Below are positions 144 to 34,756 of a stretch of 42,590 nt of DNA, one piece after another. Source of the DNA: Bdellovibrionota bacterium FG-1. GTDB taxonomy: Bacteria > Bdellovibrionota > UBA1018. The stretch is from assembly GCA_051382295.1 (NCBI GenBank), contig JBBCAW010000066.1:1-42590 (forward strand). The letters are read 5' to 3'. Position 1 is the first letter of the stretch. Each line of letters starts with the position of its first letter. Under the pieces are notes generated by a model. That model made no database searches. It was not told the DNA's origin and saw only the letters and a list, made by a program, of their open reading frames with translations. Made by a program: the position numbers and the translations under genes.

Positions 144-1030
144 TTAGGGTGCCTGTTTTTCTCCGAATGTGGATAAAGGGAATGCGGCAAGCTCGACATG
201 GTAGACGGAATCCGTCGATTGGTCGCCCGCCCCAAGTGCTTCAATCTTTTGGATGGTGTCTTGGAGAATCAAACACAATTGATCATATTTATCAGGAGAC
301 AATACAAAAGTATGGCCGAGCAAGAGGCGGTGCTTTGCTTTGACTTCGGCGATCGACGCTACTGCCAATGAAGGCATTTCCCGGTGAAACCGCCCAAGCG
401 CTAACCGGAAAACGCCACCGGAACATTGGATGAATTTTAAGGCTGGCTCCACTGTCCCGTCCTCATTTTTCCTGAAAAACCCCGCATTTTCCAGAAAAAT
501 GAGCGCTGCTTGAATTTCTTTTGGATCCGCCCGGAATCCGGCCAACGTTGACATTTCACGTATCGCCACATAGTACCAATGAGTTAAGTAGCGCCACGCC
601 TCATACTCATTCGGATTGGCCTTTCTAAATTCCGCAGAATTTTCCAGACGTTTCATGGCGGCGGCGCGGATATCTGAAGATTCAGTTTCAGAGATGGTAT
701 AAAGTGCCTCAACGAACTCTTCTTCCGTTCGAGGCAAGTCCATTTGTTGAAGTATTTTTTTATGAATAGAGTAATCGATTGAGTGGAACCTTCTCAATAT
801 CTTCACTAATCGGATCGGTTCGATTTGAATCTTTTGAGCAAATGTTTTCAGGGAGCCACCATTTTTGGCGTATGTCTTCATCCAAGAAAGGACAAAGTCA
901 CGGTAGTCGTGAAAGTGGTATGGATTTACTTTGGGTCCTGATTACCCGCGCGTAAAATGTCCTTCCAGAGAGCTTCTGCCTTGGTCTTGAGTTGGGCGAG
1001 AGCGATATTTGGTTCTTTTCCACTATTCAA
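144..1030 (-). pseudogene. TIGR02147-family protein (HTH + DUF4423), frameshifted copy (pseudogene or programmed -1 frameshift)
   Basis: ORF 144..881 has YLTHWYYVAIREM, FHREM and VYHVELAAFPL, matching paralog 1811..2692. Its conserved N-terminus (PKVNPYHFHDYRDFVLSW) continues in frame to about 935 with no start codon. A TTG at 1030 with a GGGGGG RBS opens a 34-codon ORF that stops at 926-928 and is joined by a -1 shift. Confidence 0.8.
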
Positions 1031-1075
1031 AGTGCACCCCCCAAAGACTTCATTTGATGTCGTATGAATCCATTA

Positions 1076-1795
1076 TTATTCAGCCTGGCCCACGTTAAGG
1101 GTTTGGATAGTATTGTCATCGAGTTCTACACCCTTTTGGGCCATAGCACTCACGATCGCTCCGAAAAGTAAGGTAATGGTCTGGCTCTTACCGGTGATCG
1201 TATAATTTGAAGCAAAGTTAAATTTGAAGGCCGTATTTTGAGTGATATCATGCACGCCTCCTCCTATGCCATTATCGAATTCCACGGCATAGTTGGCCCC
1301 CGCACACACGGCTGGGACCACGGCAAAAGTGATGTCAATTTCTGATATAATCGTTCCAGTGGGAATAGCGATGTTGCCGATGGTCATGGGCTGGGTGCTG
1401 GACGCGCTGAAACTTAAAAGTCCTCTACCCACTGATGGTTGAGTTGTTCCATTTATGCTCAGTTGTTTGCCGCTTCCATCCAGAAAGATCAAAGTATCAT
1501 TGCAAACATTGAATTTACCAAAGCTTGAGACTGTAGCAAACGCAGAGCGAGCTCCAAAAAATACCTCTTCGAGGCCAAACTCTGCGATCCTCAGCACTGA
1601 TTCCAGCCAATGGTGGGGACGATCGATTGAAGCGGCGCTCGATCCGGCCAGAGGCGCAGATTGAAGGGTTAAATTTTCTGAACTGGCTATATTACCTGGG
1701 TTGCCCGTGCCGGTTCCGCCACCGCAATGGATCAGGGCAATTGAAAGGAGGAGCGCAGCGGCTGAAAGATATTTTTTACAAATTTCCGTTATCAT
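1076..1795 (-). CDS. Putative lipoprotein, partner of TIGR02147 (paralog of 2739..3398)
   Basis: Signal peptide ending ALIHC followed by GGGTGTGNP. Shares CNDTL, GLLSFS, EIDIT and ITQNTAFKF with 2739..3398. Confidence 0.75.
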   Translation of the reverse strand: MITEICKKYLSAAALLLSIALIHCGGGTGTGNPGNIASSENLTLQSAPLAGSSAASIDRPHHWLESVLRIAEFGLEEVFFGARSAFATVSSFGKFNVCNDTLIFLDGSGKQLSINGTTQPSVGRGLLSFSASSTQPMTIGNIAIPTGTIISEIDITFAVVPAVCAGANYAVEFDNGIGGGVHDITQNTAFKFNFASNYTITGKSQTITLLFGAIVSAMAQKGVELDDNTIQTLNVGQAE

Positions 1796-1810
1796 ATTGG
1801 CAACCCCTCT

Positions 1811-2692
1811 TTACTTTTTATTGGATTCATTTTTTTTCAGCGCACACTTGGAGACCGGAAAAAAAGCAAGCTCGACATGGTAGATTTCGTCGCCGACTGA
1901 AGCCTCTTGACTGATCGCTCGAATCTCGTCGTAGGCGTTAAGCATAATCCTTTGGATCCGCTCAAAGCGAGAACTATCTACCGGGAGGGTGTAGCCTACA
2001 AGATTTCGTTTTTCAGGTGGGGTGGTGTCAATAGACTTTCCAGCTAACACCAACATTTCACGGTGAAACTGAATCAAGGCGGTTCGGTAGATACCCCCCA
2101 GACAATCCATAGGCTTGCTCGGCGGAGTCACGCTACCATCGGGCGCGGTTTCGATGAAGCCGTGGTCTATCAGAAACTTCAGCGCGACTTCGATCTCTCG
2201 CTGCGAGACGGATTCTTGAAGGCGATCCTGAATCCAAGAGGGATCTGGTTTGAAACCTGGCAATCCAGTCATTTCACGGATCACCACATAGTACCAGTGC
2301 GTGAGATAGCGAAAAACTTCGGTTTCTTTCTGGTTGCTGGAACGATAATCCTTGAAGCGGTTCATCCGTTCAAAGGCGGCGACACGTTCCTCTTGAATTG
2401 TAGCATTTCCTAAGAGAATCAGAGCCTCAAAATAATCTTGTTCTCGACGATTGAGTTTGAGCGCGGACGCCAGCTTGAGTGCGGTCTTGATGGAGAGATT
2501 GCGCTTTCCCGAAAGAATCATCGAAAGATTGCTGACCGAAAGACCGGAATGAAGGGCAAGTGAACGTAAGGAGTTTGAGGACTGGCGCGCTTTTGTGTAG
2601 GCGAGCCAGTCCCTTATAAACTCACGGTATTCGTGGTAGCCGAATATCTCAGGCCGAGAGGACTTTGGGGTTTTTCCGCTAGAGTTTGCCAT
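1811..2692 (-). CDS. TIGR02147-family protein (XRE-like HTH + DUF4423), intact
   Basis: IFGYHEYREFI, SLRSLA..SGLSVSNLSMILSGKRNLS (HTH), YLTHWYYVVIRE, FHREM, YHVELAFFP. ATG at 2692 chosen because 2758 overlaps the upstream gene. Confidence 0.88.
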   Translation of the reverse strand: MANSSGKTPKSSRPEIFGYHEYREFIRDWLAYTKARQSSNSLRSLALHSGLSVSNLSMILSGKRNLSIKTALKLASALKLNRREQDYFEALILLGNATIQEERVAAFERMNRFKDYRSSNQKETEVFRYLTHWYYVVIREMTGLPGFKPDPSWIQDRLQESVSQREIEVALKFLIDHGFIETAPDGSVTPPSKPMDCLGGIYRTALIQFHREMLVLAGKSIDTTPPEKRNLVGYTLPVDSSRFERIQRIMLNAYDEIRAISQEASVGDEIYHVELAFFPVSKCALKKNESNKK

Positions 2693-2738
2693 AAACGGCC
2701 ATTCTTTCGTCTTTTTACGGGTTGGTCCAGTGTTTGGC

Positions 2739-3398
2739 TTATTGTGCTTGGCCCGCACTGACTGTCTGGATTGTGGAATTACTTAGTCCAGCGCCCAGCG
2801 CAACCATTCCGTTCACAATTTGCCCTAAGAGCAAGGTGAGGTTTTGTGCGGAGCCAGTAATGGTCACCGGTGTTGAAAAGGTGAACTTGAATGCCGTATT
2901 TTGAGTGATATTGATCGGGCCTGAACCGGGGTCAAACTGAACTGCGTACGAAAAGCCCGGGCACAGCGTGGCGCTGATTGCAGAGGTGATGTCGATTTCC
3001 TTGATTTGCGTACCCGCCGCGACGTCCAAGTTTGCGAGCGTGGTATTGGAAGTGGACGCCGATGAAAAGCTCAGCAGGCCTAGCCCGGCTTGGTTGGTTG
3101 AACCATTGACCGCGACGGTATTGCCGTGAGTGTCGGTTAGAACTAAAGTGTCATTGCATATTTTGAGAGCACCAAAGGAGGAAACTGCGGCATAGGCTAC
3201 GCGTTCGCCGAGTAGAAATTCTAGAAGTCCTGAAGTCAACGAAGCCGCGCTGGCCCCGGCCAGGGGGGCTGCCAGGAGCGAAACCTTGCCAGCAGCAATG
3301 GGGGTCACGGCCGCGATTGGCGCCTTGCCGCAGCCTGTGGCGAGGATGATGGAAGCGGCGAAAGCGTGGGCCCAGTGGATTTGATGTTTGGGGGTCAT
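2739..3398 (-). CDS. Putative lipoprotein, partner of TIGR02147
   Basis: AGGAG RBS before ATG 3398, lipobox LATGC, clear paralogy to 1076..1795. Confidence 0.78.
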   Translation of the reverse strand: MTPKHQIHWAHAFAASIILATGCGKAPIAAVTPIAAGKVSLLAAPLAGASAASLTSGLLEFLLGERVAYAAVSSFGALKICNDTLVLTDTHGNTVAVNGSTNQAGLGLLSFSSASTSNTTLANLDVAAGTQIKEIDITSAISATLCPGFSYAVQFDPGSGPINITQNTAFKFTFSTPVTITGSAQNLTLLLGQIVNGMVALGAGLSNSTIQTVSAGQAQ

Positions 3399-3554
3399 GG
3401 TACTACTCCTTGTTTTGGTTACTGCGGGCCTAATGCCCATGTATTAAGAATGTGGCACCGCACTGGAAAAGTCAACTATATGTTCTCAATACGTGCGCTA
3501 AAAATTCATTTATCATAAAATCGACAATTATTTTAACCAGTTACAAGATTTAAT

Positions 3555-3674: not shown

Positions 3675-5609
3675 ATGCCTAAACTCTCTGGCTTGAGCCT
3701 GAAGCATCATCTTCGATGTATTTTGAGTGAATTGAAGGATCGAAAAAGCATTTTTGGTCTCCCTCAAAGTAAGTTTTTTCTCGGACATGAAGGACTCGAT
3801 TTTTCGGTCCAGTTTCATACGAGGCGCCCTTTTACGCCCCTGGGTCCGGCTGCGGGCCCTCACACTCAGATGGCCCAGAACGTTGTGCTTGCCTACCTGG
3901 GGGGCGCCCGGGTTTTTGAACTGAAAACCGTGCAGATTCTCGATGAGCTCGAGCTTCCTCGGCCCTGCATCGATGCGAGAAATATTTGCTTCAACGTGGA
4001 ATGGTCCCAAGAGCTGAAACTAGAAGAATCACAGGATGAATACTTCAAAGCCTGGATTCTGCTGAAGTTGGTCGAAGAGCTCGAGCTTTTGGGTAAACCG
4101 AAAGGTGATCCGTTTTATGAGTTCGCCTTTGATCTTTCGGCGGGCTACGACTTCAAGGGGATTTCGAGCCCGAAAATGAGTTCTTGGCTTCGCAGTTTTC
4201 AAGAGCCGCAGGAACTTCTCGGTAAGATGATTGGGGAGATTTCCGGGGAGTTTCCACAAGCCCGAAATTTGAATTTGGCCGGGTCGATTTCAGACTCTCT
4301 CACGCTTTCTACGTTTCACGGTTGTCCCAAGGATGAAATTGAAACGATCGTCCGCTATCTCATCCACGAGCAGGGCTTGCACGTCGTCGTGAAAATGAAC
4401 CCCACTTTGCTGGGCTACGAATGTGTTCGAAAAACACTCTTGGAAGACCTCGGTTATCATCAGCTCAAACTCGATGAAAAGGCTTTTCAAGGCGATCTTT
4501 CGTTTGCGGATGCGGTTCCAATGATGAAGCGATTGCAGAAGTTCGCCCAAGAGCGGGGTCGAAACTTCGGAGCTAAGTTTTCAAACACCCTCGTCGTTCA
4601 GAATCATGACAAGGTTTTCTCCGATCGCGTGATGTATCTTTCGGGAGCACCGCTCCATGTGCTGGCGATGAACACCATGCAGCGTTTTAGCGCGGAGATG
4701 GATCCGGGTTTTCATATTTCCTTTTCGGCTGGGATTGACCGCGATAATTTCGCCGACGCGGTCTTATGCGGCATGAAGCCGGTCACGACCTGTACGGATT
4801 TATTGAAGGAAGGGGGCTATGGCCGCCTCAGCGCGTATCTGGACCACCTCGCCGCCGAGATGAAGGCGGTGGGCGCCCATTCCATCGCGAGTTTTATCGC
4901 AAACAAGGGTGGAAACCCTCACGAGATCGTCTCGCGGTTGGTGACGAATCCAAAATACCATTTCAGCCAAAACAGCGGACTTCCGAAGGCTTCTGAGGCG
5001 CGGCTTCAATTCTTTGATTGCATCACTTGCAATGTCTGTATTCCAGTTTGCCCCAATGCGGCGAATTTCTGGATCAGTGCTGGCAAGACTTCTGAGGGGG
5101 TCACTGATTTTGAATTCAAATCGGGCAAGTTCCATCCTGTTCAAAGTGAATCCTTAACGTTGGTTCGGCCCAGGCAGATCGCTCATCTCGCGGAATTTTG
5201 CAATGAATGCGGAAACTGCGAAACCTTTTGCCCCGAGGATGGGGCACCCTACCAGGTCAAACCTCGATTTTTTCTTTCTGAAATGAGTTATCGGGCTACT
5301 CCCGCGTTGGATGGGTTTTGCCTTCAAAGCCCCTGGGAGATGAGAGGTCGACTTGCGGGGCAGGAATATCGGCTCAAAACTGACGCCATCGCAGAAGAGT
5401 TTCTTTTTGAAAACTCTCGTTTTCGGTTGGTTTTGCAAAATGACGGAAGTTTGGTGCAAGGCGAAGCAATCGACGACGACGCGAAGGATTCTGCCGAGCG
5501 GTTGAATATGCGCCCCTTCTACGTCATGAAGGTGTTGCTCGCCGGGCTGCATAAAACTCCAGAAAATTTTGCAAAAGTGCTTTTAGTCGGTCCAAAGGAA
5601 AATCCATGA
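3675..5609 (+). CDS. ygfK: YgfK-like oxidoreductase, short form (N-terminal flavin TIM-barrel + C-terminal 2x[4Fe-4S])
   Basis: YgfK-type motifs TPLGPAAGPHTQMAQN, ELKTVQILDEL..PRPCID, FNVEWSQEL, TLSTFHGCPKDEIE, VKMNPTLLG, YLSG. C-terminal CITCNVCIPVCPN and CNECGNCETFCP. 644 aa with no central Rossmann GxGxxG module. Confidence 0.82.
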   Translation: MPKLSGLSLKHHLRCILSELKDRKSIFGLPQSKFFLGHEGLDFSVQFHTRRPFTPLGPAAGPHTQMAQNVVLAYLGGARVFELKTVQILDELELPRPCIDARNICFNVEWSQELKLEESQDEYFKAWILLKLVEELELLGKPKGDPFYEFAFDLSAGYDFKGISSPKMSSWLRSFQEPQELLGKMIGEISGEFPQARNLNLAGSISDSLTLSTFHGCPKDEIETIVRYLIHEQGLHVVVKMNPTLLGYECVRKTLLEDLGYHQLKLDEKAFQGDLSFADAVPMMKRLQKFAQERGRNFGAKFSNTLVVQNHDKVFSDRVMYLSGAPLHVLAMNTMQRFSAEMDPGFHISFSAGIDRDNFADAVLCGMKPVTTCTDLLKEGGYGRLSAYLDHLAAEMKAVGAHSIASFIANKGGNPHEIVSRLVTNPKYHFSQNSGLPKASEARLQFFDCITCNVCIPVCPNAANFWISAGKTSEGVTDFEFKSGKFHPVQSESLTLVRPRQIAHLAEFCNECGNCETFCPEDGAPYQVKPRFFLSEMSYRATPALDGFCLQSPWEMRGRLAGQEYRLKTDAIAEEFLFENSRFRLVLQNDGSLVQGEAIDDDAKDSAERLNMRPFYVMKVLLAGLHKTPENFAKVLLVGPKENP

Positions 5610-7975
5610 AACCCACGCGAATCGCCTTCAACCCCTACAACGAAAAAAAGCCAAATTACTCTGAAAATTTTCTAGCGGATGACTCGCTTCCCTTTCATCG
5701 TTCGCTGGAGGGTTACGGTCGAACCCCTTTGCGCGAATTGCCAGCTCTGGCCAAGGAACTGGGAGTGGGAAGGATTTTGGTCAAAGACGAGGCTCACCGT
5801 TTTCAACTCAACGCCTTTAAGGGGCTGGGTGCGGCTTACGCCATTTATCGTTTCATCAAGCAGAAATGGGAGGAGAAGTTTAAGTCACCTTTCAATTTTG
5901 AACTTTTCAGTGGAACCGACGCGATTCAGAAATTGGGCACGTTTACGTTTGCGTCGGCTACCGACGGCAACCATGGCCGGGCTGTGGCCTGGACCGCAAG
6001 AAAACTGGGACAGAAGGCCGTGATTTTTATGCCTTCCAATACGGTAAAAGCCCGTATCGAGGCGATCCGTCGCGAAAATACCGAGGTCGTGATAGTTCAG
6101 GGCACGTACGACGACACCGTTAAGCGCGCTGCTGAAGAGGGAAAGCGCAACGGTTGGCAGATTATTTCAGATACGGCGTATGAGGGGTACACCGAAATTC
6201 CTCGTTGGATTATGACCGGATACACTACGATTTTTCGTGAAATCGACGAGGAGCTAGAGGGTTCTCATTTACCCTCACCTGACGTAGTGATTGTTCAAGC
6301 GGGAGTGGGCGGCTTGCTTTGTGCAGCGGCTGACTATTACGTTAGAACCATGGGCGAAAAGCGTCCCAAGCTGGTTTGCGCAGAACCCCTCGATGCGGAT
6401 TGTCTGCTCGAATCAATTATCTCCAAGAATGGCGCGATCGCTTTGGCGAAGGGGGGGCAGAACTCGATCATGGCCGGCCTCAACTGTGGAACACCCTCGC
6501 TGCTTGCCTGGCCCGTGATTCAAAAGTCCGTACATTCCTTTGTCGCGGTCGATGACGACTGGGCTAGATGTGCGATGAAAACTTTTTATCATCCACGAGG
6601 CAATGATCCTAAAATCACCTCAGGTGAATCCGGAGCGGCCGGTCTTGCGGTTTTGCTCGCTCTTTGCGGTGAAAGTGACTTAGCGGCTGCCAAGACCAGG
6701 CTTGGGCTAAACGAGCAATCGACCGTGTTGTTGATTAACTCTGAGGGTGATACCGATCCGGAGAGTTTTAAAGCGATTATCACGACCTTAGGCTCCGAAG
6801 CGGAGAAATATCGCGGGGACTGTGCGCAGTTTTTGCGGGAACTGGTTGCGATTCCGAGTCTCAGTACGCAAGAAGAAAACGTCGCTGCGCGAATCGTGCG
6901 GGAGATGAAAAAGCTGGGTTTTGATGAGGCCTGGACCGATGACTACGGAAATGTGATTGGCCGAGTTGGCAAAGGCCCGATACGCATCGTGTTTGATGGT
7001 CACATCGATACGGTGGGAATCGGGAATCGGAGTTCGTGGTCCTATGATCCCTTTCAGGGGAAAATAGAAAATGGCTACATTTATGGCCGAGGCGCTTCTG
7101 ATAATAAAGCCGCAAACGCCGTTCAGGTCTATGGTGCCGCACTTTTTAAGAAGTTGGGCAAACAGCTCGATGAGGTTTCAGTTTACGTCGTGGGCTCCGT
7201 GCAAGAAGAGGACTGCGATGGCCTGGGGCTGAAATACGCGCTCGAGAAATCCATCGGAAACGTGGACTTTGTTTGCCTGGGCGAGGCCACTGAACTTGCT
7301 ATTTATCGTGGACACCGGGGACGAGTGGAGATCGAGGTGAGTGCTCGCGGCGTTTCTTGTCATGCTTCCGCGCCGGAACGGGGACAAAATGCTATTTATC
7401 GGATGATGAAGTTGGTGGCCGACATCGAAAATCTGCACGCGAATCTTGCGCCCGATCATTTTCTTGGCAAGGGCTCAGCAGCTGTGACCCATATTCGGTG
7501 CGAAACTCCGAGTCTTTGTGCGGTTCCGGACTCTTGCACGATTCACATCGACCGGCGCATTATTCCGGGTGAGACCCGCGAATTTGTTATGAAACAGATT
7601 CAGGCACTTCCGGAATTTGATCCTCAGTCCATGGAAGTCAAGATCCTCAACTACGACGTGCCTTCTTATAAAAAGATGAGTCTCGAGACCGAAAAATATT
7701 ATCCAAGCTGGGTTTTGCCGCAGGACCATCCCTTGACCCAGGCCGGGATAGCGGCTGCGGCCGAAGTGCTGGGCCGGAAGCCAGAAATCAGCAGATGGGT
7801 TTTTAGCACCAACGGGGTATCCAGCATGGGCTTGCTGCAGATCCCCACCATTGGTTTTGGTCCGGGGCAAGAAGAGGACGCTCATACCACGAACGATCGC
7901 GTGAGAATCGAGGACCTTGTGACCTCGGTGGCGTTTTACGCGGCACTCCCTGGCCAGATTGCATCAAGAAGGTAA
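5606..7975 (+). CDS. dpaL-ygeY: Fusion of diaminopropionate ammonia-lyase (DpaL/YgeX) and YgeY-family M20 amidohydrolase
   Basis: About aa 1-392: KDEAHRFQLNAFKGLG (PLP Lys), ATDGNHGRAVAW, QAGVG, SIMAGLNCG, SGESGAAG, EGDTDP. About aa 393-789: DGHIDTV, GRGASDNK, VQEEDCDG, IYRGHRGR, WVFSTNGV, GFGPGQEEDAH. ATGA overlap with the upstream gene. Confidence 0.92.
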   Translation: MKPTRIAFNPYNEKKPNYSENFLADDSLPFHRSLEGYGRTPLRELPALAKELGVGRILVKDEAHRFQLNAFKGLGAAYAIYRFIKQKWEEKFKSPFNFELFSGTDAIQKLGTFTFASATDGNHGRAVAWTARKLGQKAVIFMPSNTVKARIEAIRRENTEVVIVQGTYDDTVKRAAEEGKRNGWQIISDTAYEGYTEIPRWIMTGYTTIFREIDEELEGSHLPSPDVVIVQAGVGGLLCAAADYYVRTMGEKRPKLVCAEPLDADCLLESIISKNGAIALAKGGQNSIMAGLNCGTPSLLAWPVIQKSVHSFVAVDDDWARCAMKTFYHPRGNDPKITSGESGAAGLAVLLALCGESDLAAAKTRLGLNEQSTVLLINSEGDTDPESFKAIITTLGSEAEKYRGDCAQFLRELVAIPSLSTQEENVAARIVREMKKLGFDEAWTDDYGNVIGRVGKGPIRIVFDGHIDTVGIGNRSSWSYDPFQGKIENGYIYGRGASDNKAANAVQVYGAALFKKLGKQLDEVSVYVVGSVQEEDCDGLGLKYALEKSIGNVDFVCLGEATELAIYRGHRGRVEIEVSARGVSCHASAPERGQNAIYRMMKLVADIENLHANLAPDHFLGKGSAAVTHIRCETPSLCAVPDSCTIHIDRRIIPGETREFVMKQIQALPEFDPQSMEVKILNYDVPSYKKMSLETEKYYPSWVLPQDHPLTQAGIAAAAEVLGRKPEISRWVFSTNGVSSMGLLQIPTIGFGPGQEEDAHTTNDRVRIEDLVTSVAFYAALPGQIASRR

Positions 7976-7979
7976 TGTG

Positions 7980-10616
7980 ATGGAATTCAGTTTAAACGGA
8001 AAAAAACAAGGTTTTGTTGGGGATCCTGAGCTTTCATTGTTTTCCTATTTACGGAAACATGCAGGACTCATCAGCCCTAAGGATGGCTGTAGCGGCGAGG
8101 GGGTTTGTGGTGCTTGCTCAGTGCAAGTGGACGGCAAGCCGATTTTTTCGTGCGTTCCGAAAATGAAGACCATGGCGGGTAAGTCGATTGTCACTCTTGA
8201 GGGCATCGAACCCAAGCGTCGTGAAGCCTATGCGGAGGCGTTTACAAAGGCGGGTGGAATCCAATGCGGATTTTGTACACCCGGGATCGTGGCCCAAGCG
8301 GATGCGCTTTTGAATCGCAACGCGGATCCGACTCGCCAAGAAGTCGTCAATACCGTGAACCGCAATATTTGTCGCTGTACAGGCTATCATAAAGTGGTGG
8401 ATTCAGTTTTGCTCGCGGCTCAGCTCATTCGTGATGGAAAGAGTACGTCTGAGATTTCCGCGACACTCGGTCAAGTGGGTGGACGCTATCCCAAGTATGA
8501 TTCGCGCTTGGCCGTCTTGGGTGAGCGTCCGTTTGTGTGTGATTTGAAGATGCCGGGAATGCTTTATGGCGTATTGAAATTTAGTGATCACCCTCGCGCT
8601 CGGATTCTGTCGATTGATACTTCTGTGGCAGTCAACGTCCCGGGAGTGACCCGGGTTTTTACCGCAAAAGATATTCCAGGGGCGCGCAAGATCGGCTTAA
8701 TTATTCCGGACTGGCCGCTCATGGTAGGCGAAGGTGAGATCACGGGCTACATTGGCGACGTTCTTGCGTTGGTTGTGGCATCGTCAGAGGAGATCGCGCG
8801 CGAGGCTGCGAGCAAACTTGGGGTGAAGTACGAGGTCTTGACGCCCTTGACGGATCCTTTCGAAGCGATGAAACCCGAGAGTCCGAAGGTTCACGAGCAG
8901 CGCCCCGAGTATGGTAAAGGAAGGGGCAATATTCTTTCGCTTTCGGAAGTCAAACGCGGCGACGTGGAGAAGGTCATTCAGGAATCAGCGTTTGTTGCCC
9001 AAGGTCGTTATACGACCCAGAGAATTGAGCACGCCTTTCTTGAGATGGAATGCTGTGTCGCTGAACCCATTTCGAAAAATGCCGAAAATGCGGAAGGCGT
9101 TCGGGTCTATTCGCAGGGACAGGGCGCATACGAAGATCGCAAGCAAATTGCAAAAATTTTAGGCCTGGCCGAAAAAGACGTGAATGTCATTCAGGTCCAA
9201 AATGGCGGCGCGTTTGGCGGAAAAGAGGACCTGACCGTACAAGGTCACGCCGCGCTGGGCGCTTTTCTTTTGAAGCAACCCGTGCGCGTGGCACTGACGC
9301 GTGGCGAGTCGATTCGCATGCATCCGAAGCGGCATCCTTTTGTGATGGATTATGTCTTGGGTTGCGATCGAAACGGGCGTCTGACCGTACTTAAGGCTGA
9401 AATCGTCGGTGATTCAGGGGCCTATGCGTCCGTCGGAATGAAAGTGGTGGAGCGCGGAGTGGGTCATGCTTCAGGCGCGTATTTTGTGCCCAATTTTCAG
9501 GTCAGCGGCACGGCGGTTTACACGAACAATGTTCCTTGCGGCGCGATGCGCGGTTTTGGTGTGAACCAAACCGCCTTTGCGATGGAGAGCTGCATGGATG
9601 AACTTTGTGAAAAAGGGGGCTTTGATCGTTGGCAGTTTCGTTTCGATAACGTGATCAAAAAGGGAGATCGTACTTCGACTGGCCAGATCATTCGCGACGG
9701 CGCGGGTTTACAAGAAACGCTGCTCGCGGTTCGCGATGACTTTTACAAGGCCAAGTACGCGGGGCTCGCGTGTGGAATCAAAAACACCGGCATTGGCAAC
9801 GGTATGCCCGATGTCGGTGAGGTCATGATCGAGTTTTTGGCGCCAAGTGATCCACCAAATCTGGCCAAGCCGGTTCGCGTCGTCATTCACCACGGTTGGA
9901 CTGAAATGGGTCAGGGCGTACATACCATGGCCATTCAGTCGTTGTGTGAAGAGACGGGCCTGGATCCTTCGTGGATGGAGGTGCGGGTCGATACTTCGTA
10001 TGAAACGGTTTGCGGCATGACCACGTCCTCTCGGGCGACCTCGTTGGTGGGTAATTCGATCATCCAAGCCGCTAAGGCATTACGTGAGGATCTCAAGGCG
10101 CATTCGGTTCAGGAGTTGATCGGACGACGTTATCCCGGTAAATGGATTTGTGATTGGACGACAAAGCCGGGCACAGGCGCAAAGGAAGAAATCACGCATT
10201 ACTCGTATAGCTACGCAACGCAGCTTGTGGTTCTGGATGAAGGCGGAAAAATCGATACCCTCTTTGCGGCTCATGATGCCGGCAAGATTATGAACCCGAC
10301 CCTTTTTGAGGGACAGATCGAGGGTGCCATTCATATGGGGCTTGGCTACGCCTTGACTGAAAATCTACCGATGGAAGGGGGTTTTCCGCTTTCGTTGAAG
10401 CTGAAAGATTGTGGCATTCTTAAAGCGAAAGGCTTGCCCAAGATCGTGGTTCGTGGTGTTGAGGTCAAGGATTCAGTCGGCCCGTATGGGGTCAAGGGTG
10501 TGGGCGAAATCGGTTTAGTTCCAACCGCTGCGGCGGTGGCCAATGCTTTTTATCAGTTTGACAAGAAACGGCGCTATAGTCTGCCGCTCTATAATGCAGA
10601 AGGGGAATTAAAATGA
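7980..10616 (+). CDS. xdh: Selenium-dependent xanthine dehydrogenase-family molybdenum hydroxylase (2x[2Fe-2S] + Moco domains in one chain)
   Basis: GCSGEGVCGAC, QCGFCTPG, NICRCTGY, GGAFGGKED, GAMRGFG, GIKNTGIGNG, EMGQG, GQIEG, KGVGEIG. No FAD domain. Start could be 7959, 7977 or 7980. Confidence 0.88.
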   Translation: MEFSLNGKKQGFVGDPELSLFSYLRKHAGLISPKDGCSGEGVCGACSVQVDGKPIFSCVPKMKTMAGKSIVTLEGIEPKRREAYAEAFTKAGGIQCGFCTPGIVAQADALLNRNADPTRQEVVNTVNRNICRCTGYHKVVDSVLLAAQLIRDGKSTSEISATLGQVGGRYPKYDSRLAVLGERPFVCDLKMPGMLYGVLKFSDHPRARILSIDTSVAVNVPGVTRVFTAKDIPGARKIGLIIPDWPLMVGEGEITGYIGDVLALVVASSEEIAREAASKLGVKYEVLTPLTDPFEAMKPESPKVHEQRPEYGKGRGNILSLSEVKRGDVEKVIQESAFVAQGRYTTQRIEHAFLEMECCVAEPISKNAENAEGVRVYSQGQGAYEDRKQIAKILGLAEKDVNVIQVQNGGAFGGKEDLTVQGHAALGAFLLKQPVRVALTRGESIRMHPKRHPFVMDYVLGCDRNGRLTVLKAEIVGDSGAYASVGMKVVERGVGHASGAYFVPNFQVSGTAVYTNNVPCGAMRGFGVNQTAFAMESCMDELCEKGGFDRWQFRFDNVIKKGDRTSTGQIIRDGAGLQETLLAVRDDFYKAKYAGLACGIKNTGIGNGMPDVGEVMIEFLAPSDPPNLAKPVRVVIHHGWTEMGQGVHTMAIQSLCEETGLDPSWMEVRVDTSYETVCGMTTSSRATSLVGNSIIQAAKALREDLKAHSVQELIGRRYPGKWICDWTTKPGTGAKEEITHYSYSYATQLVVLDEGGKIDTLFAAHDAGKIMNPTLFEGQIEGAIHMGLGYALTENLPMEGGFPLSLKLKDCGILKAKGLPKIVVRGVEVKDSVGPYGVKGVGEIGLVPTAAAVANAFYQFDKKRRYSLPLYNAEGELK

Positions 10617-11479
10617 CGAAAGTAAAAGTCGGAGTCATTCAGTGTTCAAACGCGCTTTCAAAAGGCTCGATCGAGGAGATCAAGACCGCCATGATCGAGA
10701 AGCATCTTAAGCTCATCGCGCAAGCGGCGGAGAAGGGTGTGCAAATTTTGGGGTTGCAGGAGATTTTTAATGGGCCGTATTTCTGCGCCACTGAAGATAA
10801 AGAATGGTATGCAGCGGCTGAAGGGGTTCCGGACGGGCCTACGGTAAAGATCATTCAGCAGCAGGCCAAAAAATACAATATGGTCATCGTGGCTCCGGTT
10901 TACGAAAAAGAGCAGCGCGGGGTATATTACAACACGGCGCCGGTGATTGATGCGGATGGAAGTTATCTCGGAAAGTACCGAAAAATTCACATTCCTCAAG
11001 GTTCGAGCTTTTGCGAAAAGTACTATTTTAAGCCCGGAAATTTAGGGTTTCCGGTTTTCAAAACCAAGTACGCGACGATTGGCGCCTATATTTGTTACGA
11101 TCGCCATTTTCCAGAGGGTGCCCGCGCGCTGGCACTGCGGGGGGCGGAGATTATTTTCAATCCTTCGGCCACGATCAAGTCCACCAGCCAATACATGTGG
11201 AAAATTGAACAGCCGGGGCTGGCCTGCGCCAACGGCGTCTACGTTGCGACAATTAACCGTCATGGTTGGGAAGAGCCTTGGCGGCACGGTGAATTTTACG
11301 GAACGAGCTATATCGTTGACCCCAAAGGCCGCATCATTGCGGAAGGCTCTGAAGATCGGGATGAAGTCGTGGTCGCGGAATGTGACCTGGATCTGATCGA
11401 TGAGGTTCGGCACAACTATCAATTTTTCAGAGATCGTCGGCCAGATGCCTACGGTGATCTCGTTGATCCCAAATTTTGA
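10613..11479 (+). CDS. Nitrilase-superfamily N-carbamoyl amidohydrolase (beta-ureidopropionase-like)
   Basis: Catalytic triad motifs QEIFNGPYFC (Glu), YRKIHIP (Lys), ICYDRHFPE (Cys); C-terminal FFRDRRPDAY. ATGA overlap with xdh. Confidence 0.88.
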   Translation: MTKVKVGVIQCSNALSKGSIEEIKTAMIEKHLKLIAQAAEKGVQILGLQEIFNGPYFCATEDKEWYAAAEGVPDGPTVKIIQQQAKKYNMVIVAPVYEKEQRGVYYNTAPVIDADGSYLGKYRKIHIPQGSSFCEKYYFKPGNLGFPVFKTKYATIGAYICYDRHFPEGARALALRGAEIIFNPSATIKSTSQYMWKIEQPGLACANGVYVATINRHGWEEPWRHGEFYGTSYIVDPKGRIIAEGSEDRDEVVVAECDLDLIDEVRHNYQFFRDRRPDAYGDLVDPKF

Positions 11480-11489
11480 TGGGCGCTCA

Positions 11490-12860
11490 ATGACTTCAGC
11501 AACGGAAATTCTGCTGATCAAAAATGCGACGGTCATCACGTGGGGTGGCCCCCAGTCGACGGGGCCGCGTTTTCGTGTGTTGAAAAATCATTCGATCATC
11601 GTTATGGGGGGAAAGATCAAGTCGATTCGACCCTCGGAAGCCCAGGCCGATGGTATGGATGCCCAGCAGGCCGCTACGGTGATCGATGGGACGGCAAAAG
11701 TGGTTCTTCCGGGGTTAATCAACGCGCACATGCATTTTTACAGCACCTTTGCGCGGGGACTCACAAAGGCGGCGCCCTCCAAGAACTTTTTAGAGGTTTT
11801 GAACCATCTGTGGTGGCGGCTGGATCGAAAACTCACGATCGAGGATGGTTATTTCAGCGCGCTCGTGGCGAGCATGGATGCGATCAAACACGGGACGACT
11901 CTCTTGGTGGATCACCATGCGAGTCCTTTTGCAGTTCGGGGATCGCTCTCGGCCATAGCCAGGGCAGTGCGAGAGGCTGGGGTAAGGGCATCGCTTTGTT
12001 ACGAGGTGTCTGACCGTGATGGGGATGAGGTGGCGCAACAGGGGATCGACGAGAATCTTGAGTTTATCGAGTCCACGCGCCAAACCGGGGATGGATATCT
12101 TCGAGCCCTTTTTGGACTTCATGCCTCATTTACGTTGTCTGACAAGACTTTAAAAAAAGTGGCCTACGCAACAAAGGACGTGAAACCAGGATTTCACATT
12201 CACGTGGCCGAAGATCTTTCGGATCAGGTCGATGCGCAGGCAAAGTTCGGTTTGATGGTGGTTGAACGATTAGATAACTTTGGTTTTCTTGGACCGGATA
12301 CGATCTGCGCACATGGCGTGCATCTGGATGATGCGGAAGTGGAGCTTCTGCGGAAGACGCGTACCATTGTCGTGCACAATCCTCAATCCAACATGAACAA
12401 CGCGGTCGGCGCGGCAGATCTTTTAAAGCTAACGAAGAATGGCGTTTTGGTGGGGCTCGGAACTGATGCCATGACCACGAACATGCTTGAAGAACTTCGT
12501 GCGGCGATTTGGCTCCAAAGGCATCATCATGGAAATCCAAGCGCGGGATTTGTGGAAGCCGTCGAGGCCCTGATTTTCGGGAATAGCCAGATTGCCACTC
12601 GTTACTGGGGCGTGGAAGCGGGAGGTCTTTTTACGGGGTCTCACGCGGATCTCGCGCTGTTGGATTATGATCCCCCGACCGAGTTAAACGAGGAGAGTTT
12701 TTACGGTCATCTCGTTTTTGGAATATCTCAAGCGTCGGTGGATACGACGATTTGTGACGGGCGAGTGCTCATGCAAGGTAAAAAGCTCCTGCATCTCGAC
12801 GAACAACAGATCATGAAAGAGGCGCGTGCGCTCTCTAAAAAACTTTGGGAAAGATTTTAG
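11490..12860 (+). CDS. ssnA: SsnA amidohydrolase
   Basis: PGLINAHMHFYSTFARG, LWWRLD, DHHASP, LCYEVSDRDG, GLHASFTLSD, HIHVAE, HNPQSNMNNAVG, GLGTD. ATG at 11490 just after the nitrilase stop. Confidence 0.9.
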   Translation: MTSATEILLIKNATVITWGGPQSTGPRFRVLKNHSIIVMGGKIKSIRPSEAQADGMDAQQAATVIDGTAKVVLPGLINAHMHFYSTFARGLTKAAPSKNFLEVLNHLWWRLDRKLTIEDGYFSALVASMDAIKHGTTLLVDHHASPFAVRGSLSAIARAVREAGVRASLCYEVSDRDGDEVAQQGIDENLEFIESTRQTGDGYLRALFGLHASFTLSDKTLKKVAYATKDVKPGFHIHVAEDLSDQVDAQAKFGLMVVERLDNFGFLGPDTICAHGVHLDDAEVELLRKTRTIVVHNPQSNMNNAVGAADLLKLTKNGVLVGLGTDAMTTNMLEELRAAIWLQRHHHGNPSAGFVEAVEALIFGNSQIATRYWGVEAGGLFTGSHADLALLDYDPPTELNEESFYGHLVFGISQASVDTTICDGRVLMQGKKLLHLDEQQIMKEARALSKKLWERF

Positions 12861-13001: not shown

Positions 13002-13481
13002 TTGTTTGTGAAAATCGGCTCACGAGGAAGACCTTTGATTGGAATTCGGCGGAAAGCGCGCATCTGTCTGAGCGTCGACCCCCTAGTGATTTCGGAATTG
13101 AAGGCCCGCGCTGTCGCAGAGAAAGCGAGTGTGAGTGAGCTAGCCTATCGCCTAATCAAGCAGGGGCTTCAGCCCCGGCAAAAAATTCAAATTTCTATCC
13201 CTTCAAAATCAGTCGCTGAGTTTTGTCAGAGCCATGGGATCAAAACACTCGGCGTTTTTGGATCCGCTTTGACGGAACGTTTCAATCAAGAGAGTGACGT
13301 CGATCTTTTGGTTGAGTTTAAAGAGGGCAAAGTGCCGGGGTTTTTCCAGATTGTGCAGATGGAGGAGGAGCTAGCGACAATTTTTGGTGGAAGAAAGATC
13401 GATCTGAGAACTTTTTTTGACTTGAGCCAATATTTCCGTGAGCGAGTCAAGAGCGAGGCTGAAGCGATTTATGCCGCGTGA
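13002..13481 (+). CDS. mntA: MntA-type minimal nucleotidyltransferase antitoxin with N-terminal RHH-like domain
   Basis: FGS-x10-DVD motif (FGSALTERFNQESDVDLL), LATIFGGRKIDL. N-terminal RGRP...ICLSVDPLVISELKARA...SVSELAYRLI has an RHH/CopG pattern. GGAGG RBS. Confidence 0.85.
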   Translation: MFVKIGSRGRPLIGIRRKARICLSVDPLVISELKARAVAEKASVSELAYRLIKQGLQPRQKIQISIPSKSVAEFCQSHGIKTLGVFGSALTERFNQESDVDLLVEFKEGKVPGFFQIVQMEEELATIFGGRKIDLRTFFDLSQYFRERVKSEAEAIYAA

Positions 13482-13521
13482 CCAATGAGCTAAGAAAGCG
13501 GGGAATGAGGATACTGTCAGG

Positions 13522-13881
13522 TTGTGCCATATTTTGGATGCTATTGAAGAGTCGCTCTCGTTTGTGCGCGGAAAAAGTCGCCGTTCGTTGGACGAGAATC
13601 GAATGTTGTCCTTGGCCCTCATTCGCGAAATCGAAGTCATTGGCGAGGCGGCGTCCAGGGTTTCTGATGAAATTAAAAATTCCCATTCAGAAATCCCTTG
13701 GGGTGCGATCATCGGAACAAGAAATCGTCTGATTCACGGATATTTTGATGTCGATTTGGATATCGTTTGGGCAACGGTCAAGACGGATTTGCCCGCTTTA
13801 GGTAAGCAATTGAAGCCTTTGCTTAAAAGAAAGAAATTTCAAATTCCATTAAGGTATGGGAACTCCGGAAAAATCCGCTGA
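13522..13881 (+). CDS. hepT: HepT/DUF86 HEPN ribonuclease toxin
   Basis: IEVIGEAA, EIPW, RNRLIHGY (RxxxxH HEPN motif + Tyr), VDLDIVW. Start uncertain because the in-frame ATG at 13471 is followed by TGA at 13486. Confidence 0.82.
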   Translation: MCHILDAIEESLSFVRGKSRRSLDENRMLSLALIREIEVIGEAASRVSDEIKNSHSEIPWGAIIGTRNRLIHGYFDVDLDIVWATVKTDLPALGKQLKPLLKRKKFQIPLRYGNSGKIR

Positions 13882-23650: not shown

Positions 23651-24751
23651 ATGAGCGGGCATAATTTTTTTGAACAGCAGGAGCGCAGCCAGAGAAACTC
23701 ATTTGCTCTCGGGTTTTTGATGATTTTTGCAATTGCGGGAGTAATCTTGGCGGCGGACGTCGCATTGACGATTACGCTTTGGGTGATTTATTGCCTGGGT
23801 CATCTTTCGGATGCGATCAGTTCTGAACCCGATCTCGTGGCGATTGGCGATGGGGCTTATCATCTGATTACGCGCCAAACTTGGGTGATTACGAGTGGAA
23901 TTACCCTTGGTATTATTGTTTTAGGGACCTTCCGGCGATTGTTTCAATTGCGAAAAGGTTCGGCCGCGATTGTTAAGCTTCTGAAGGCAAGGCGGGTCCA
24001 TCCCAATACAACGAATTTTGAAGAACATCGGCTTCTTCATGTGGTTGAAGAAATGTCGATTGCCTCGGGGGTGGGCGTGCCACCCGTTTATTTGCTCGAG
24101 AATGAGCCTAAAATCAATGCTTTGAGCGCTGGAAGGTCGGCGGCCGAGGCGGTGATTATCGTGACTTCTGGGGCGATGATGCAGCTCCATCGTGAGGAGT
24201 TGCAAGCCGTGATTGCCCATGAGTTTAGCCATATTTACAGTGGGGATATGGCGCTTAATATGCGATTTGCAGGGATACTCGGGGGGTTTTTTGCCGTCGG
24301 AAATGTGGGCCTTTGGGTGGCTCAGCTTGGCCTTCGAATTGGGGAGGGTGATGCTCTCGCGTTGGTTCTCTTGATTGGATTCTTTGGTGGCTCGATTTTT
24401 GCGGTGGGGCTGGTCGGTGTTTTTGGCGGCCGGTTAATTAAGAGTGGAATATCGCGACAACGAGAATTCTTGGCGGATGCGCGGGCGGTTCAATACACGC
24501 GAAACAGCGACGCGTTGGTGGGGGCCCTCAAAAAAATTCAAGCCTATCAGCGGGACGCAAGTGGCGATGCCGAGGGGATCAAGGGTTTTGTGCAAAAAGT
24601 GACGGATTTCATGACGAGTTGGTTTAGGGCGCAAAAATCCGATGAGCTTTCGCATATGTTTTTTTCAGCGATCAAAACGCCAAAGTTTTTTAAGGTTTTG
24701 TCCTCTCATCCATCGTTGGAAGATCGATTAAGAGAACTCGGCCCGCACTAA
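23651..24751 (+). CDS. M48 (HtpX-like) membrane zinc metalloprotease
   Basis: VVEEMSIASG, INA, AHEFSH (HExxH), SRQREFLADA, SSHPSLEDR. Usual partner of lemA. Confidence 0.88.
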   Translation: MSGHNFFEQQERSQRNSFALGFLMIFAIAGVILAADVALTITLWVIYCLGHLSDAISSEPDLVAIGDGAYHLITRQTWVITSGITLGIIVLGTFRRLFQLRKGSAAIVKLLKARRVHPNTTNFEEHRLLHVVEEMSIASGVGVPPVYLLENEPKINALSAGRSAAEAVIIVTSGAMMQLHREELQAVIAHEFSHIYSGDMALNMRFAGILGGFFAVGNVGLWVAQLGLRIGEGDALALVLLIGFFGGSIFAVGLVGVFGGRLIKSGISRQREFLADARAVQYTRNSDALVGALKKIQAYQRDASGDAEGIKGFVQKVTDFMTSWFRAQKSDELSHMFFSAIKTPKFFKVLSSHPSLEDRLRELGPH

Positions 24752-25884
24752 ATTCCAGAAGCGTAAGAACTTGTCCAGACTTGGCTGAATACTCGATCCA
24801 GTTGGCCTGCGATGCCGGGATTCGAAACGATGAGTCCCACATCCCGGGAACTTAAAAAATATCCCTTGCTCCAGTTTTCGGTGCCCACCCAGGCTGACGA
24901 CCCGTTGTCGATCACGAGGTATTTGCTGTGTACGAGACGGGCAAAGTCGATAGCGCCGCCCGACCAGGCCGGAAGGGTGGCAGCTTTGACCTCAATGTTG
25001 GGCACCGCGGCCAGGCTCGCAAGATCTGCTTTGGCGCTCTTGACGTGTCCGATGTCGAGCAGGAGTTGGACTTTGATCCCCGAGCGCGCGGCCTTGCGAA
25101 GCGCATCGTCGAGATCGCGCCAGTGGCCAGCAGTTGAATATGCCATCACTTGCACGCGCACGGACTGTTTTGCTGAGGCGATCAGTTTGATGATCGATGA
25201 AAGCGAATCGGGGATGCCTGCAGGGTTTGTTTGGGGAGGGGAGGCTACAACCGTTGCCCAATTTTCTTGCGAAGCGCTGGGAGATTCAGTTGGAGTGATG
25301 GCACTTGCCGCAGGCGTTGAGGTGGTCGCAGCGGCCCAGTCTTTTTCGAAAATACGGCCCAGATCCGAAATTACAGTGGATTCGGTAAGGCGCAGTCCAA
25401 TTTCATGAATATGGTCCAGCGCGCGCCAATCGAAATTTTGACTGCCCACGAAGGCTTGCTTTCCGTCGATGATGAAGAACTTGGCGTGCTGAATGCCGCC
25501 GGAACTCGCATAACTGATCAGGCGCGCTTCACAGCCGGGAGTCTTGCCGATCTCGGCGACTGTTTCGGGATAGGTCTTGGCCATTTTTGTGTCGGCCATA
25601 AGGCGTACCTTGACGCCGCGTTGGGTGGCGGCGGCTTTGATGGCCTGGATGACTGGATCGAGCGACTGTCCGGCTTGGTTGCTGATATAAAACTGTTCGA
25701 TATCGATGGTTGATTTGGCGCCGTTGATCATTTCCAGCCAGACTTCTTGCGCCAGACGGATGCCAGGTACCGTGAGCGTCGTTTCGAGGGGGACGGACTG
25801 GACGACCTCGATCGGGATGTCGGAGCCCGCGTAGGCGGTTGCGCAGACGAGTAGAATCAAAAGTGAAAAGGCACGGTATTTCAT
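24748..25884 (-). CDS. Secreted phospholipase D-family protein
   Basis: Signal peptide ending AYA; two HKD motifs, HAKFFIID...GSQNFD and HSKYLVID...GTENW. Confidence 0.9.
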   Translation of the reverse strand: MKYRAFSLLILLVCATAYAGSDIPIEVVQSVPLETTLTVPGIRLAQEVWLEMINGAKSTIDIEQFYISNQAGQSLDPVIQAIKAAATQRGVKVRLMADTKMAKTYPETVAEIGKTPGCEARLISYASSGGIQHAKFFIIDGKQAFVGSQNFDWRALDHIHEIGLRLTESTVISDLGRIFEKDWAAATTSTPAASAITPTESPSASQENWATVVASPPQTNPAGIPDSLSSIIKLIASAKQSVRVQVMAYSTAGHWRDLDDALRKAARSGIKVQLLLDIGHVKSAKADLASLAAVPNIEVKAATLPAWSGGAIDFARLVHSKYLVIDNGSSAWVGTENWSKGYFLSSRDVGLIVSNPGIAGQLDRVFSQVWTSSYASGI

Positions 25885-26753: not shown

Positions 26754-27008
26754 AGAGAATCCCCCCAGATTCAGCAGTACGCTAAGCAGGTTATGTGCCG
26801 CAGGCTGATTCGGCAAGTGAGGGAGCGGATTTTTTTGAACACTGTGATTGCGAGGGCTTAATGCAATGTATAAAAATAAGGCAGAAACAGCGCACAGCGT
26901 AATGTAGGGTCATATTTTCCCCATGGTGTCGTTTTGTTCAGCAAACGTGGCTTCGGGATCCGGGGTGAACCCCTACTGAAACCATCAACCCCGCTCAAGG
27001 CTTTTCAC

Positions 27009-31987: not shown

Positions 31988-31999
31988 TAAGCCCCGATC

Positions 32000-32365: not shown

Positions 32366-32393
32366 AAGTGTCGACCGCGAGCCAAGGGCTGTC

Positions 32394-34649: not shown

Positions 34650-34730
34650 AGGACTCCTTGCGAGGTCTTAATGCGGAATAGAACCGCCCGTAAAATGGTT
34701 GAATTCTATTGTTACACCCGCCTTCTTGTT

Positions 34731-34756
34731 AATTAAAGAAAAAACTTTCTTTAATT
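34731..34756. promoter_or_regulatory. Perfect palindromic operator between qNor and Rrf2
   Basis: AATTAAAGAAA-AAAC-TTTCTTTAATT (11-4-11 perfect inverted repeat). Confidence 0.7.

Follow-up and report, generated by a model that had tools for sequence, protein, structure and literature searches.

Operon and gene content

The window, the whole 42,590-nucleotide stretch from Bdellovibrionota bacterium FG-1 (contig JBBCAW010000066.1), carries an operon with the order ygfK-like / ygeX-ygeY fusion / xdh / nit / ssnA, where nit encodes a nitrilase-family protein.

3675..5609, + strand: short YgfK-like reductase (644 aa), with the N-terminal YgfK region and a 4Fe-4S domain but no FAD/NAD(P)H module
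5606..7975, + strand: in-frame fusion (789 aa) of YgeX (diaminopropionate ammonia-lyase) and YgeY (M20 ureido hydrolase)
7959..10616, + strand: xdh, selenium-type molybdenum hydroxylase (TIGR03311, 886.8 bits against a cut-off of 830.45)
10613..11479, + strand: predicted PydC-derived nitrilase-family carbamoylase of a divergent clade
11490..12860, + strand: SsnA ring-opening amidohydrolase (TIGR03314, 500.3 against 455.5; NF005540 over cut-off)

The operon holds the reductive urate set of Xdh/DOPDH, YgfK (in part: N-terminal region and Fe-S), SsnA, YgeY and YgeX. Xdh is a probable urate-to-2,8-dioxopurine dehydrogenase; its six active-site motifs are nearly identical to those of Xdh from ygeW-bearing clusters, and it has Thr at the position of bovine A1078, among the changes named for DOPDH. 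The short YgfK-like protein matches TIGR03315 over residues 6–398 (443 bits, below the full-length cut-off of 835), has Fer4 domains at residues 448–522, and is probably a 2,8-dioxopurine reductase. Both parts of the fusion exceed their cut-offs (NF006058 at residues 10–394; NF009555/TIGR03526 at residues 395–786), and the relative P0003 (83% identity) is likewise a YgeX-YgeY fusion.

No hyuA lies in the operon; the genome's one dihydropyrimidinase (TIGR02033), with 43% identity to E. coli HyuA, sits in the Pyd operon. The selenium accessory gene selD was found in the genome, yqeC was not found there, and YqeB was detected only by a partial XdhC-type match. Promoter and terminator counts in the window equal the shuffled background, and GC content is flat.

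The nitrilase gene, confirmed as real, is an open reading frame encoding 288 aa. Its ATG overlaps the xdh stop codon (ATGA at 10613–10616), while its own stop is separated by 10 nt from the ssnA start, placed at 11490 from the family match, whose first matched residue is 8. The translational coupling to both neighbours proposed in a first-pass annotation therefore holds, as strict stop–start overlap, on the xdh side only. An assembly artefact at the junction of xdh and nit is unlikely, because a contig from a related strain bridges it (10568–10824, 9 differences).

A divergent clade derived from PydC

The nitrilase matches PF00795 (E 3e-66; 223.8 bits against a cut-off of 23.2), and among solved structures its best relatives are the plant N-carbamoylputrescine amidohydrolase and the fly and human beta-ureidopropionases. 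Its AlphaFold model (pLDDT 72.9) resembles nitrilase-family structures with TM 0.73–0.81, the pocket loops (128–142, 188–204, 217–228 and 270–277) having pLDDT below 50. On alignment to 8pt4, with numbering counted from the alignment, K124, E135 and C161 correspond to human K196, E207 and C233, whose roles are taken from PMC10741476. The intact Glu-Lys-Cys triad noticed earlier (E50/K124/C161) is present and, together with the second Glu, E135, unchanged in all 18 clade members.

These 18 sequences are monophyletic (support 1.0). The first tree had distant outgroups on very long branches, and was rebuilt without DCase_L082, L216, L217, L082 and L051 and with every third PydC kept. A profile search of 50% representatives returned no separate representative of the clade, since its members are within 50% of PydC. 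At 149 columns conserved in PydC its members show 20–34 departures (24 in the window protein), against a mean of 2.3 and a maximum of 10 in 94 PydCs from Pyd contexts. Twenty-one positions are diagnostic of the clade versus PydC, including T/V130G, W134C/N/Y/F, G190S, L191T, H203L/M, Y209V and W269Y. G130 and C134 flank F133 and E135 in entrance loop 2, and S190, N268 and Y269 align with the plant-enzyme pocket residues Glu187, Cys276* and Trp277*. The beta-type core C161-Y162-D-R164-H165 and F133 are kept in all 18 members; PMC10741476 proposes that human Y234 (= Y162) keeps out the alpha-type substrate N-carbamoyl-glycine and that F205 (= F133) selects against ligands bearing a second polar group. 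Judged from its sequence, the window protein falls outside the ordinary beta-ureidopropionases (PydC), in a distinct clade with a changed pocket entrance.

Distribution of the nitrilase and of ygeW

In the window genome (G000; 97.7% complete, contamination 5.0%) no ygeW, carbamate kinase or D-aminoacylase/UacY was found; the remaining pathway steps are present, with YgeY and the nitrilase in the operon. The clade was found in four other genomes (G463, G464, G466 and G472), which belong to a second family, and all five are fragmentary assemblies. The gene lies inside the urate operon in 5/5, with ygeW or uacY in the cluster in 0/5, and co-occurs with a short YgfK in every case, the orthologues in the four other operons being about 650 aa long and 46–47% identical. 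Their order is ygfK-like / [ygeX] / [ygeY] / xdh / ssnA-like / nit, with SsnA of a divergent subfamily below the cut-off; in G472 a second TIGR02033 copy adjoins the operon. YgeY exceeds its cut-off in all five genomes.

The nitrilase-bearing arrangement is rare, not widespread. In a 401-genome sample of the phylum, query P0001 gave 46 matches, of which only that in G000 exceeded 63%, and the four other genomes were recovered solely by a full search of family f22. A metagenome scan with the window SsnA, in which many contigs were short, found the nitrilase at 0 of 80 loci and a strong ygeW match (57–70%) at 12.

An anti-correlation between the nitrilase and ygeW, expected from the first-pass annotation, was seen in part. 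All 24 clade-free ssnA genomes carry ygeW, against two of the five with the clade (Fisher p 0.003, an overstated value as only about three lineages are involved). The control count was made after weak ssnA-like matches in G305 and G153 (E 1e-65 and 1e-61) had been dropped, and the ssnA search covered 58 of 75 family-f1 genomes. In the two exceptions, G463 and G466, an intact ygeW-ygeY-carbamate kinase module is located away from the nitrilase operon, which itself lacks ygeY. In them the nitrilase is the most conserved operon gene (dN 0.03–0.04 versus 0.07–0.15; dN alone was used, dS being near saturation among G463, G464 and G466), a strong constraint that would not be expected from pure redundancy. 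The nitrilase branches of the ygeW-positive genomes are about twofold longer than that of G464 (0.020–0.023 versus 0.010), a difference of too few changes for relaxed constraint to be claimed. G463 and G466 weigh most heavily against a strict replacement of YgeW.

Proposed function

From the observed gene content, synteny, clade, residue changes and absence of alternatives in this genome we infer a substrate, regiospecificity and flux for the nitrilase. By homology, Xdh and the short YgfK would reduce urate in the reductive 2,8-dioxopurine pathway, the first ring would be opened by SsnA and the second by a dihydropyrimidinase encoded outside the operon, yielding 2,3-diureidopropionate (DUPA), which carries two ureido groups. 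The nitrilase would then cut one carbamoyl group via a covalent intermediate on Cys161, giving CO2 and NH3; this would be the reaction step of E. coli YgeW, with neither carbamoyl phosphate nor ATP involved. The likeliest group to be removed is the 3-(beta)-ureido group, leaving 3-amino-2-ureidopropionate. The fused YgeY would take off the 2-ureido group, and YgeX would produce pyruvate.

We assign a probability of about 0.6 to the nitrilase hydrolytically decarbamoylating DUPA, probably at the 3-ureido group, as the YgeW-step enzyme. The more specific idea is that a beta-ureidopropionase paralogue has become a specialised (R)-2,3-diureidopropionate 3-carbamoylase, which would make it the third enzyme type, unrelated to the other two, at the YgeW step; this is tentative, and we put it at somewhat under even odds. 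Under this idea the beta-specific core would oblige YgeY to take the 2-ureido group in these organisms. As a non-orthologous replacement for YgeW, suggested at first pass, the nitrilase fits the window genome, where ygeW, carbamate kinase and UacY are missing, and fits less well the two of five genomes that have the ygeW module. Also counted against the DUPA assignment are the retention of F133, given the role proposed for human F205, the lack of hyuA in the window operon, the absence of ygeX from three of the five nitrilase operons, and the cleavage order of Li et al. (2-ureido group by YgeW, 3-ureido group by YgeY), in which a nitrilase specific for the beta position would do the work of YgeY a second time. 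The clade may track the short-YgfK variant rather than the loss of ygeW.

It is unlikely, although worth weighing, that the nitrilase acts in the urate pathway at a different step. Li et al. assigned the 2-ureido group to YgeW and the 3-ureido group to YgeY, and the nitrilase could take the latter from albizziin, an alpha-amino analogue of beta-ureidopropionate that would suit the retained beta-type core; in G463 and G466 it has been kept where the operon ygeY is lost and ygeW is present. It could equally act on a side product of the short YgfK, its constant companion, and SsnA, which gives two products. However, YgeY already fills that step in all five genomes, and no ygeW or D-aminoacylase for the first cleavage was found in G000, G464 or G472.

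Relation to pyrimidine breakdown

The clade's ancestry raises the question of a relocated or dual-use PydC that finishes reductive pyrimidine breakdown. Among the best 80 non-clade relatives in genome contigs (61–67% identity), 78 lie beside Pyd genes, and no nitrilase PydC was found in the Pyd operons of G000 (contig C71, MSDH-pydB-pydD-preT-preA), G463, G464 and G466. G472, however, has besides the clade gene (21 departures) a canonical PydC (3 departures), encoded in a Pyd operon of its own, and 0/5 clade genes lie inside a Pyd operon (pydA/preTA, pydB, pydD). M20 carbamoylases, moreover, fill in for the missing canonical PydC: they occur in 0/26 genomes with canonical PydC versus 11/13 Pyd-operon genomes without it, the 11 including four clade genomes (all but G472) and seven that have no clade gene. 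According to PMC10952681, M20 enzymes can be beta-ureidopropionases. Although the M20 candidates of the clade genomes, including that of G000 on contig C71, lie outside the Pyd operon, all five genomes have a separate beta-ureidopropionase candidate, which weakens the alternative, raised at first pass, that the operon extends to pyrimidine breakdown; we consider such a role improbable.

Very improbable is the degradation of a heterocycle other than urate by the short-YgfK operon, with the nitrilase decarbamoylating the ring-opened product: the truncated reductase, the divergent SsnA of the four other operons, the failure to find yqeC in the window genome and the three operons without ygeX would agree with it, but the Xdh motifs are shared with ygeW-bearing clusters, SsnA in the window is of the canonical type, and YgeX with YgeY points to diaminopropionate in G000 and G472.

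Significance

Two 2025 studies solved the reductive urate pathway and give different answers as to which ureido group of DUPA goes first, the 3- or the 2-ureido group; a commentary (PMC12990295) lists this order as open. A beta-ureidopropionase-derived enzyme alongside YgeY, with no YgeW, offers a direct test of this order. Were the nitrilase a 3-carbamoylase, it would serve as a regiospecific reagent for resolving the dispute, as well as an irreversible, phosphate-independent module for engineered uricolysis. Hydrolytic replacement of YgeW has been published for another fold, C. difficile UacY (PMC12507026); replacement by a PydC-derived nitrilase was not found in the published literature. 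It would represent a pyrimidine-catabolic enzyme recruited to purine catabolism, for which the ancestral paralogue kept by G472 is a built-in control, and would place the pathway in non-gut, uncultured bacteria without its ATP-yielding step. Clade-type proteins are currently labelled acyltransferase or beta-ureidopropionase in annotations, and the clade signature lets them be re-annotated.

Comparison with known systems

The best PDB sequence match to the window nitrilase (E 1e-58) is AguB (MtCPA 5h8i, PMC4812014), which has the same decarbamoylation chemistry. Identity with AguB/CPA was rejected, TIGR03381 scoring 257.5 against a curated cut-off of 410.25, with S190 in place of the amine anchor Glu187 and Y162/R164/H165 in place of Trp159/Gln161/Trp162. 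DCase has the motif C-N-D-R-R-W, with two carboxylate-binding Arg; this identity was likewise rejected, the window motif being C-Y-D-R-H-F and identity to DCase structures 25–27%. UPB1 (8pt4, 6ftq), fly 2vhh and the bacterial Pyd homologues share with the window protein their fold (TM 0.78–0.81), catalytic tetrad, C-Y-x-R-H and F133. Its identity to bacterial Pyd-operon proteins is 58–67%, the ‘PydC’ label there reflecting gene context and database names.

The E. coli system of YgeW and YqeA (bioRxiv 10.1101/2025.04.24.650524; PMC12507026) shares the neighbours ygfK, ssnA, xdh, ygeX and ygeY, and the nitrilase is predicted to occupy the position of YgeW, the first decarbamoylation of DUPA. It has a nitrilase rather than a carbamoyltransferase fold, and its predicted reaction is hydrolytic, with no carbamoyl phosphate. 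The window genome also differs in the lack of carbamate kinase, the short YgfK, the fused ygeX-ygeY and the absence of hyuA from the operon.

C. difficile UacY, a D-aminoacylase homologue (PF07969; PMC12507026), is a hydrolytic, irreversible replacement of YgeW and YqeA and, like the window nitrilase, accompanies a reductase without the FAD/NADH module. UacY, a metal-dependent amidohydrolase, has been shown to cleave the 2-ureido group and so to form albizziin (PMC12507026), whereas the window enzyme is a Cys nitrilase of beta-ureidopropionase ancestry, with a predicted cut at the 3-ureido group.

The nitrilase gene and its operon

The first-pass annotation described an intact nitrilase gene (hereafter nit) between xdh and ssnA, and this stands: nit encodes a carbon-nitrogen hydrolase of 288 residues. 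Its first codon shares the ATGA with the stop of xdh, and 10 nt separate the nit stop from the start of ssnA. The xdh–nit junction is also spanned by a contig from a related strain. The co-directional genes are:

3675–5609, +, short YgfK-like reductase
5606–7975, +, YgeX–YgeY fusion
7959–10616, +, selenium-type Xdh
10613–11479, +, nitrilase (carbon-nitrogen hydrolase, 288 residues)
11490–12860, +, SsnA

Counted along the alignment, K124, F133, E135, C161 and Y162 correspond to K196, F205, E207, C233 and Y234 of human beta-ureidopropionase.

YgeX and YgeY form one frame of 789 residues; a relative at 83% is likewise fused, and a distinct group of about 838-residue proteins bears both domains at 43–44% identity. 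The YgfK-like protein (about 650 residues) has an N-terminal region and an Fe-S domain without the FAD/NAD(P)H module in 5/5 nitrilase operons (the window, L258, L259, L260 and L262) and, by analogy with UacX, is probably ferredoxin-fed. The genome contains selD (contig C5, 27332–28252), but yqeC was not found in it, though the window Xdh scores as selenium-dependent. On contig C30 (11713–16092) another Xdh, of three subunits, is accompanied by an XdhC-type gene.

Elsewhere in the window, an MNT-HepT (type VII-like) toxin–antitoxin pair lies immediately 3' of the operon (13002–13881). Multiheme cytochromes, NrfD/DsrP- and DsrO-like subunits, a quinol-type nitric oxide reductase-like gene and an Rrf2 regulator (28702–35245) are consistent with a low-oxygen lifestyle. 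A phosphoesterase-family gene adjoins a two-domain phospholipase D-like protein (24748–26816), and at 144–3440 two ORFs without a family match are interleaved with two TIGR02147/DUF4423 proteins.

A divergent clade of nitrilases

The nearest relatives argue against the YgeW-like role proposed in the first-pass annotation. The best 80 in named genomes share 61–67% identity with the window protein, and 78 of them adjoin genes of reductive pyrimidine breakdown (Pyd genes). Within the window's own family a relative at 58–63% occurs in 15/74 other genomes, every one in a Pyd context, and none of 80 metagenomic ssnA loci contains a nitrilase. Judged by similarity alone, nit would be a beta-ureidopropionase.

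A protein search also returned a small group at 68–91% identity, some members being named as Bdellovibrio sp., Bacteriovoracaceae or Bdellovibrionales, which makes Bdellovibrionota the probable phylum. Eighteen sequences, including copies from four other genomes, form one clade (support 1.0), which departs from the consensus of the nitrilase-type beta-ureidopropionase, PydC, at 20–34 of 149 conserved columns; for 94 Pyd-context proteins the departures average 2.3, with a maximum of 10. The clade has 21 diagnostic positions, and K189 is unvarying across 16 aligned members. S190, N268 and Y269 align with Glu187, Cys276* and Trp277*, which PMC4812014 assigns to the pocket of the plant N-carbamoylputrescine amidohydrolase. 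The catalytic tetrad, Y162, R164, H165 and F133 are unaltered. We infer a conserved carbamoyl and carboxylate core behind an altered entrance, as would be expected for a substituted beta-ureido acid.

The four other genomes (G463, G464, G466 and G472, from 237 in a second family) also carry the gene in an operon of short ygfK, ygeX, ygeY, xdh and an ssnA-like gene. G472 has the full set, with a hydantoinase adjoining; ygeX is missing from the operon of G464, and neither ygeX nor ygeY is present in the operons of G463 and G466. In 4/4, nit follows the ssnA-like gene rather than preceding it as in the window, and SsnA is of a different subfamily, but the linkage still holds.

A predicted step in urate breakdown

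Reductive urate breakdown leads through Xdh, YgfK, SsnA and HyuA to 2,3-diureidopropionate (DUPA), from which YgeW and YgeY take off the two carbamoyl groups before YgeX yields pyruvate (bioRxiv 10.1101/2025.04.24.650524; PMC12507026). We consider it probable (about 0.6), from sequence and gene context, that nit hydrolyses one of these groups: Cys161 would attack DUPA with release of NH3 and CO2, in a step that precedes YgeY and YgeX and brings no gain of ATP. The 3-ureido group would be favoured, leaving the 2-ureido group to YgeY, because Y162 is retained and what we take to be the motif of the DCase class of nitrilases is lacking. In the human enzyme, Y234 (Y162 here) is proposed to exclude an alpha-type substrate and F205 (F133) to disfavour a second polar group (PMC10741476). 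Retention of F133 thus speaks against binding of DUPA, unless space is provided by changes at neighbouring positions.

The genome (completeness 97.7%, contamination 5.0%) has a corresponding gap. A ygeW search returned only a weak match, adjoining a dihydroorotase-like gene; queries for carbamate kinase and D-aminoacylase gave no match in the genome, nor did E. coli YgeW and YqeA by tblastn.

Across genomes, the expected anti-correlation with ygeW holds in part. At E 1e-60, ssnA matched in 18/401 sampled phylum genomes, two weak matches being dropped; in each of the 15 others ygeW exceeds the cut-off and the clade gene is absent. With nine further ssnA genomes of the second family, in whose fetched loci ygeW was seen (one a contig-edge fragment), ygeW is present in 24/24 ssnA genomes without the clade. 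It was not found in three of five clade genomes (the window's own, G464 and G472), and D-aminoacylase matched in 0/5 (Fisher p 0.003 for clade against ygeW, a value that exaggerates the significance, since the five genomes represent only about three lineages). However, G463 and G466 have ygeW as well, in a separate ygeW–ygeY–carbamate kinase module, and there nit is the most conserved operon gene (dN 0.03–0.04, against 0.11–0.13 for ssnA, 0.07–0.08 for xdh and 0.12–0.15 for ygfK). No other result speaks as strongly against strict replacement. The pattern fits either an irreversible hydrolytic route retained alongside the phosphorolytic one or a different role; that nit acts at another step within the urate pathway seems rather unlikely to us.

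Both modules lie away from xdh/ssnA, that of G463 (L266, 6679–13273) adjoining an ornithine-carbamoyltransferase-like gene and that of G466 at L267; G464, of the same genus, gave no match whatever to the ygeW profile. Many ygeW-type clusters of the phylum (L102, L106, L109, L111, L114, L269, L272, L273 and L277) have, instead of YgeX, a divergent PLP enzyme on the opposite strand, 22–29% like YgeX.

The pyrimidine alternative

The first-pass annotation also allowed that nit might serve pyrimidine breakdown, and the Pyd linkage of most relatives speaks for this. The genome's single dihydropyrimidinase lies in a Pyd operon (L099, contig C71, 2806–13638; MSDH-pydB-pydD-preT-preA) without the nitrilase PydC that family relatives have between pydB and pydD. 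At 2.7 kb from this operon lies an M20 carbamoylase gene, with a second copy on contig C151, and M20 carbamoylases can be beta-ureidopropionases (PMC10952681).

The M20 enzyme matched in 13 of 63 dihydropyrimidinase-positive genomes and never together with canonical PydC: it is found in 0/26 genomes with canonical PydC and in 11/13 whose Pyd operon lacks it, the two misses being operons that end at contig edges in genomes 66% and 80% complete. Seven of these 11 lack the clade gene, their M20 enzymes being only 31% like that of the window's genome; the remaining two matches are G263 and G309. G472 has the clade gene plus a canonical PydC in MSDH-pydB-pydC-pydD. Each clade genome has canonical PydC or the M20 carbamoylase, and therefore another candidate for the pyrimidine step, so that a pyrimidine or dual role for nit is improbable. 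That the operon degrades a heterocycle other than urate we regard as more improbable still.

Replacement of YgeW by nit is thus better supported than the first-pass annotation could show, but it is a prediction for a small clade with two genome-level counter-examples, G463 and G466.

Comparison with known systems

The acidobacterial locus L082 (1863–10861), the only one of the best 80 relatives to adjoin xdh/ssnA genes, has ygeY-like, ssnA-like and selenium-type xdh genes and an M20 carbamoylase next to a canonical PydC-type nitrilase; a second nitrilase there is, by its motif, presumably DCase-like. Its genome has many D-aminoacylases, and ygeW was not found in it. The locus is possibly an independent hydrolytic lower pathway.

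The word 'nitrilase' is absent from the available text of both primary studies (bioRxiv 10.1101/2025.04.24.650524; PMC12507026). A literature search at the level of listings returned no paper on a nitrilase in this pathway, and a PydC-related family in the putative YgeW role was not found in the literature so covered; a neighbourhood table in a supplement to either study, or in the published article by Liu et al., could already include it.

A hydrolytic YgeW replacement is, however, of a known kind. In C. difficile the hydrolase UacY, a D-aminoacylase homologue, stands in for YgeW and YqeA, and the phosphorolytic route is described as thermodynamically less favourable (Li et al., PMC12507026). 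The same authors place YgeW at the 2-ureido group, and a commentary regards the order of cleavage as unresolved (PMC12990295). Liu et al. place YgeW at the 3-ureido group, coupled to ATP via YqeA (bioRxiv 10.1101/2025.04.24.650524), and the 3-ureido cleavage predicted for nit would agree with that order.
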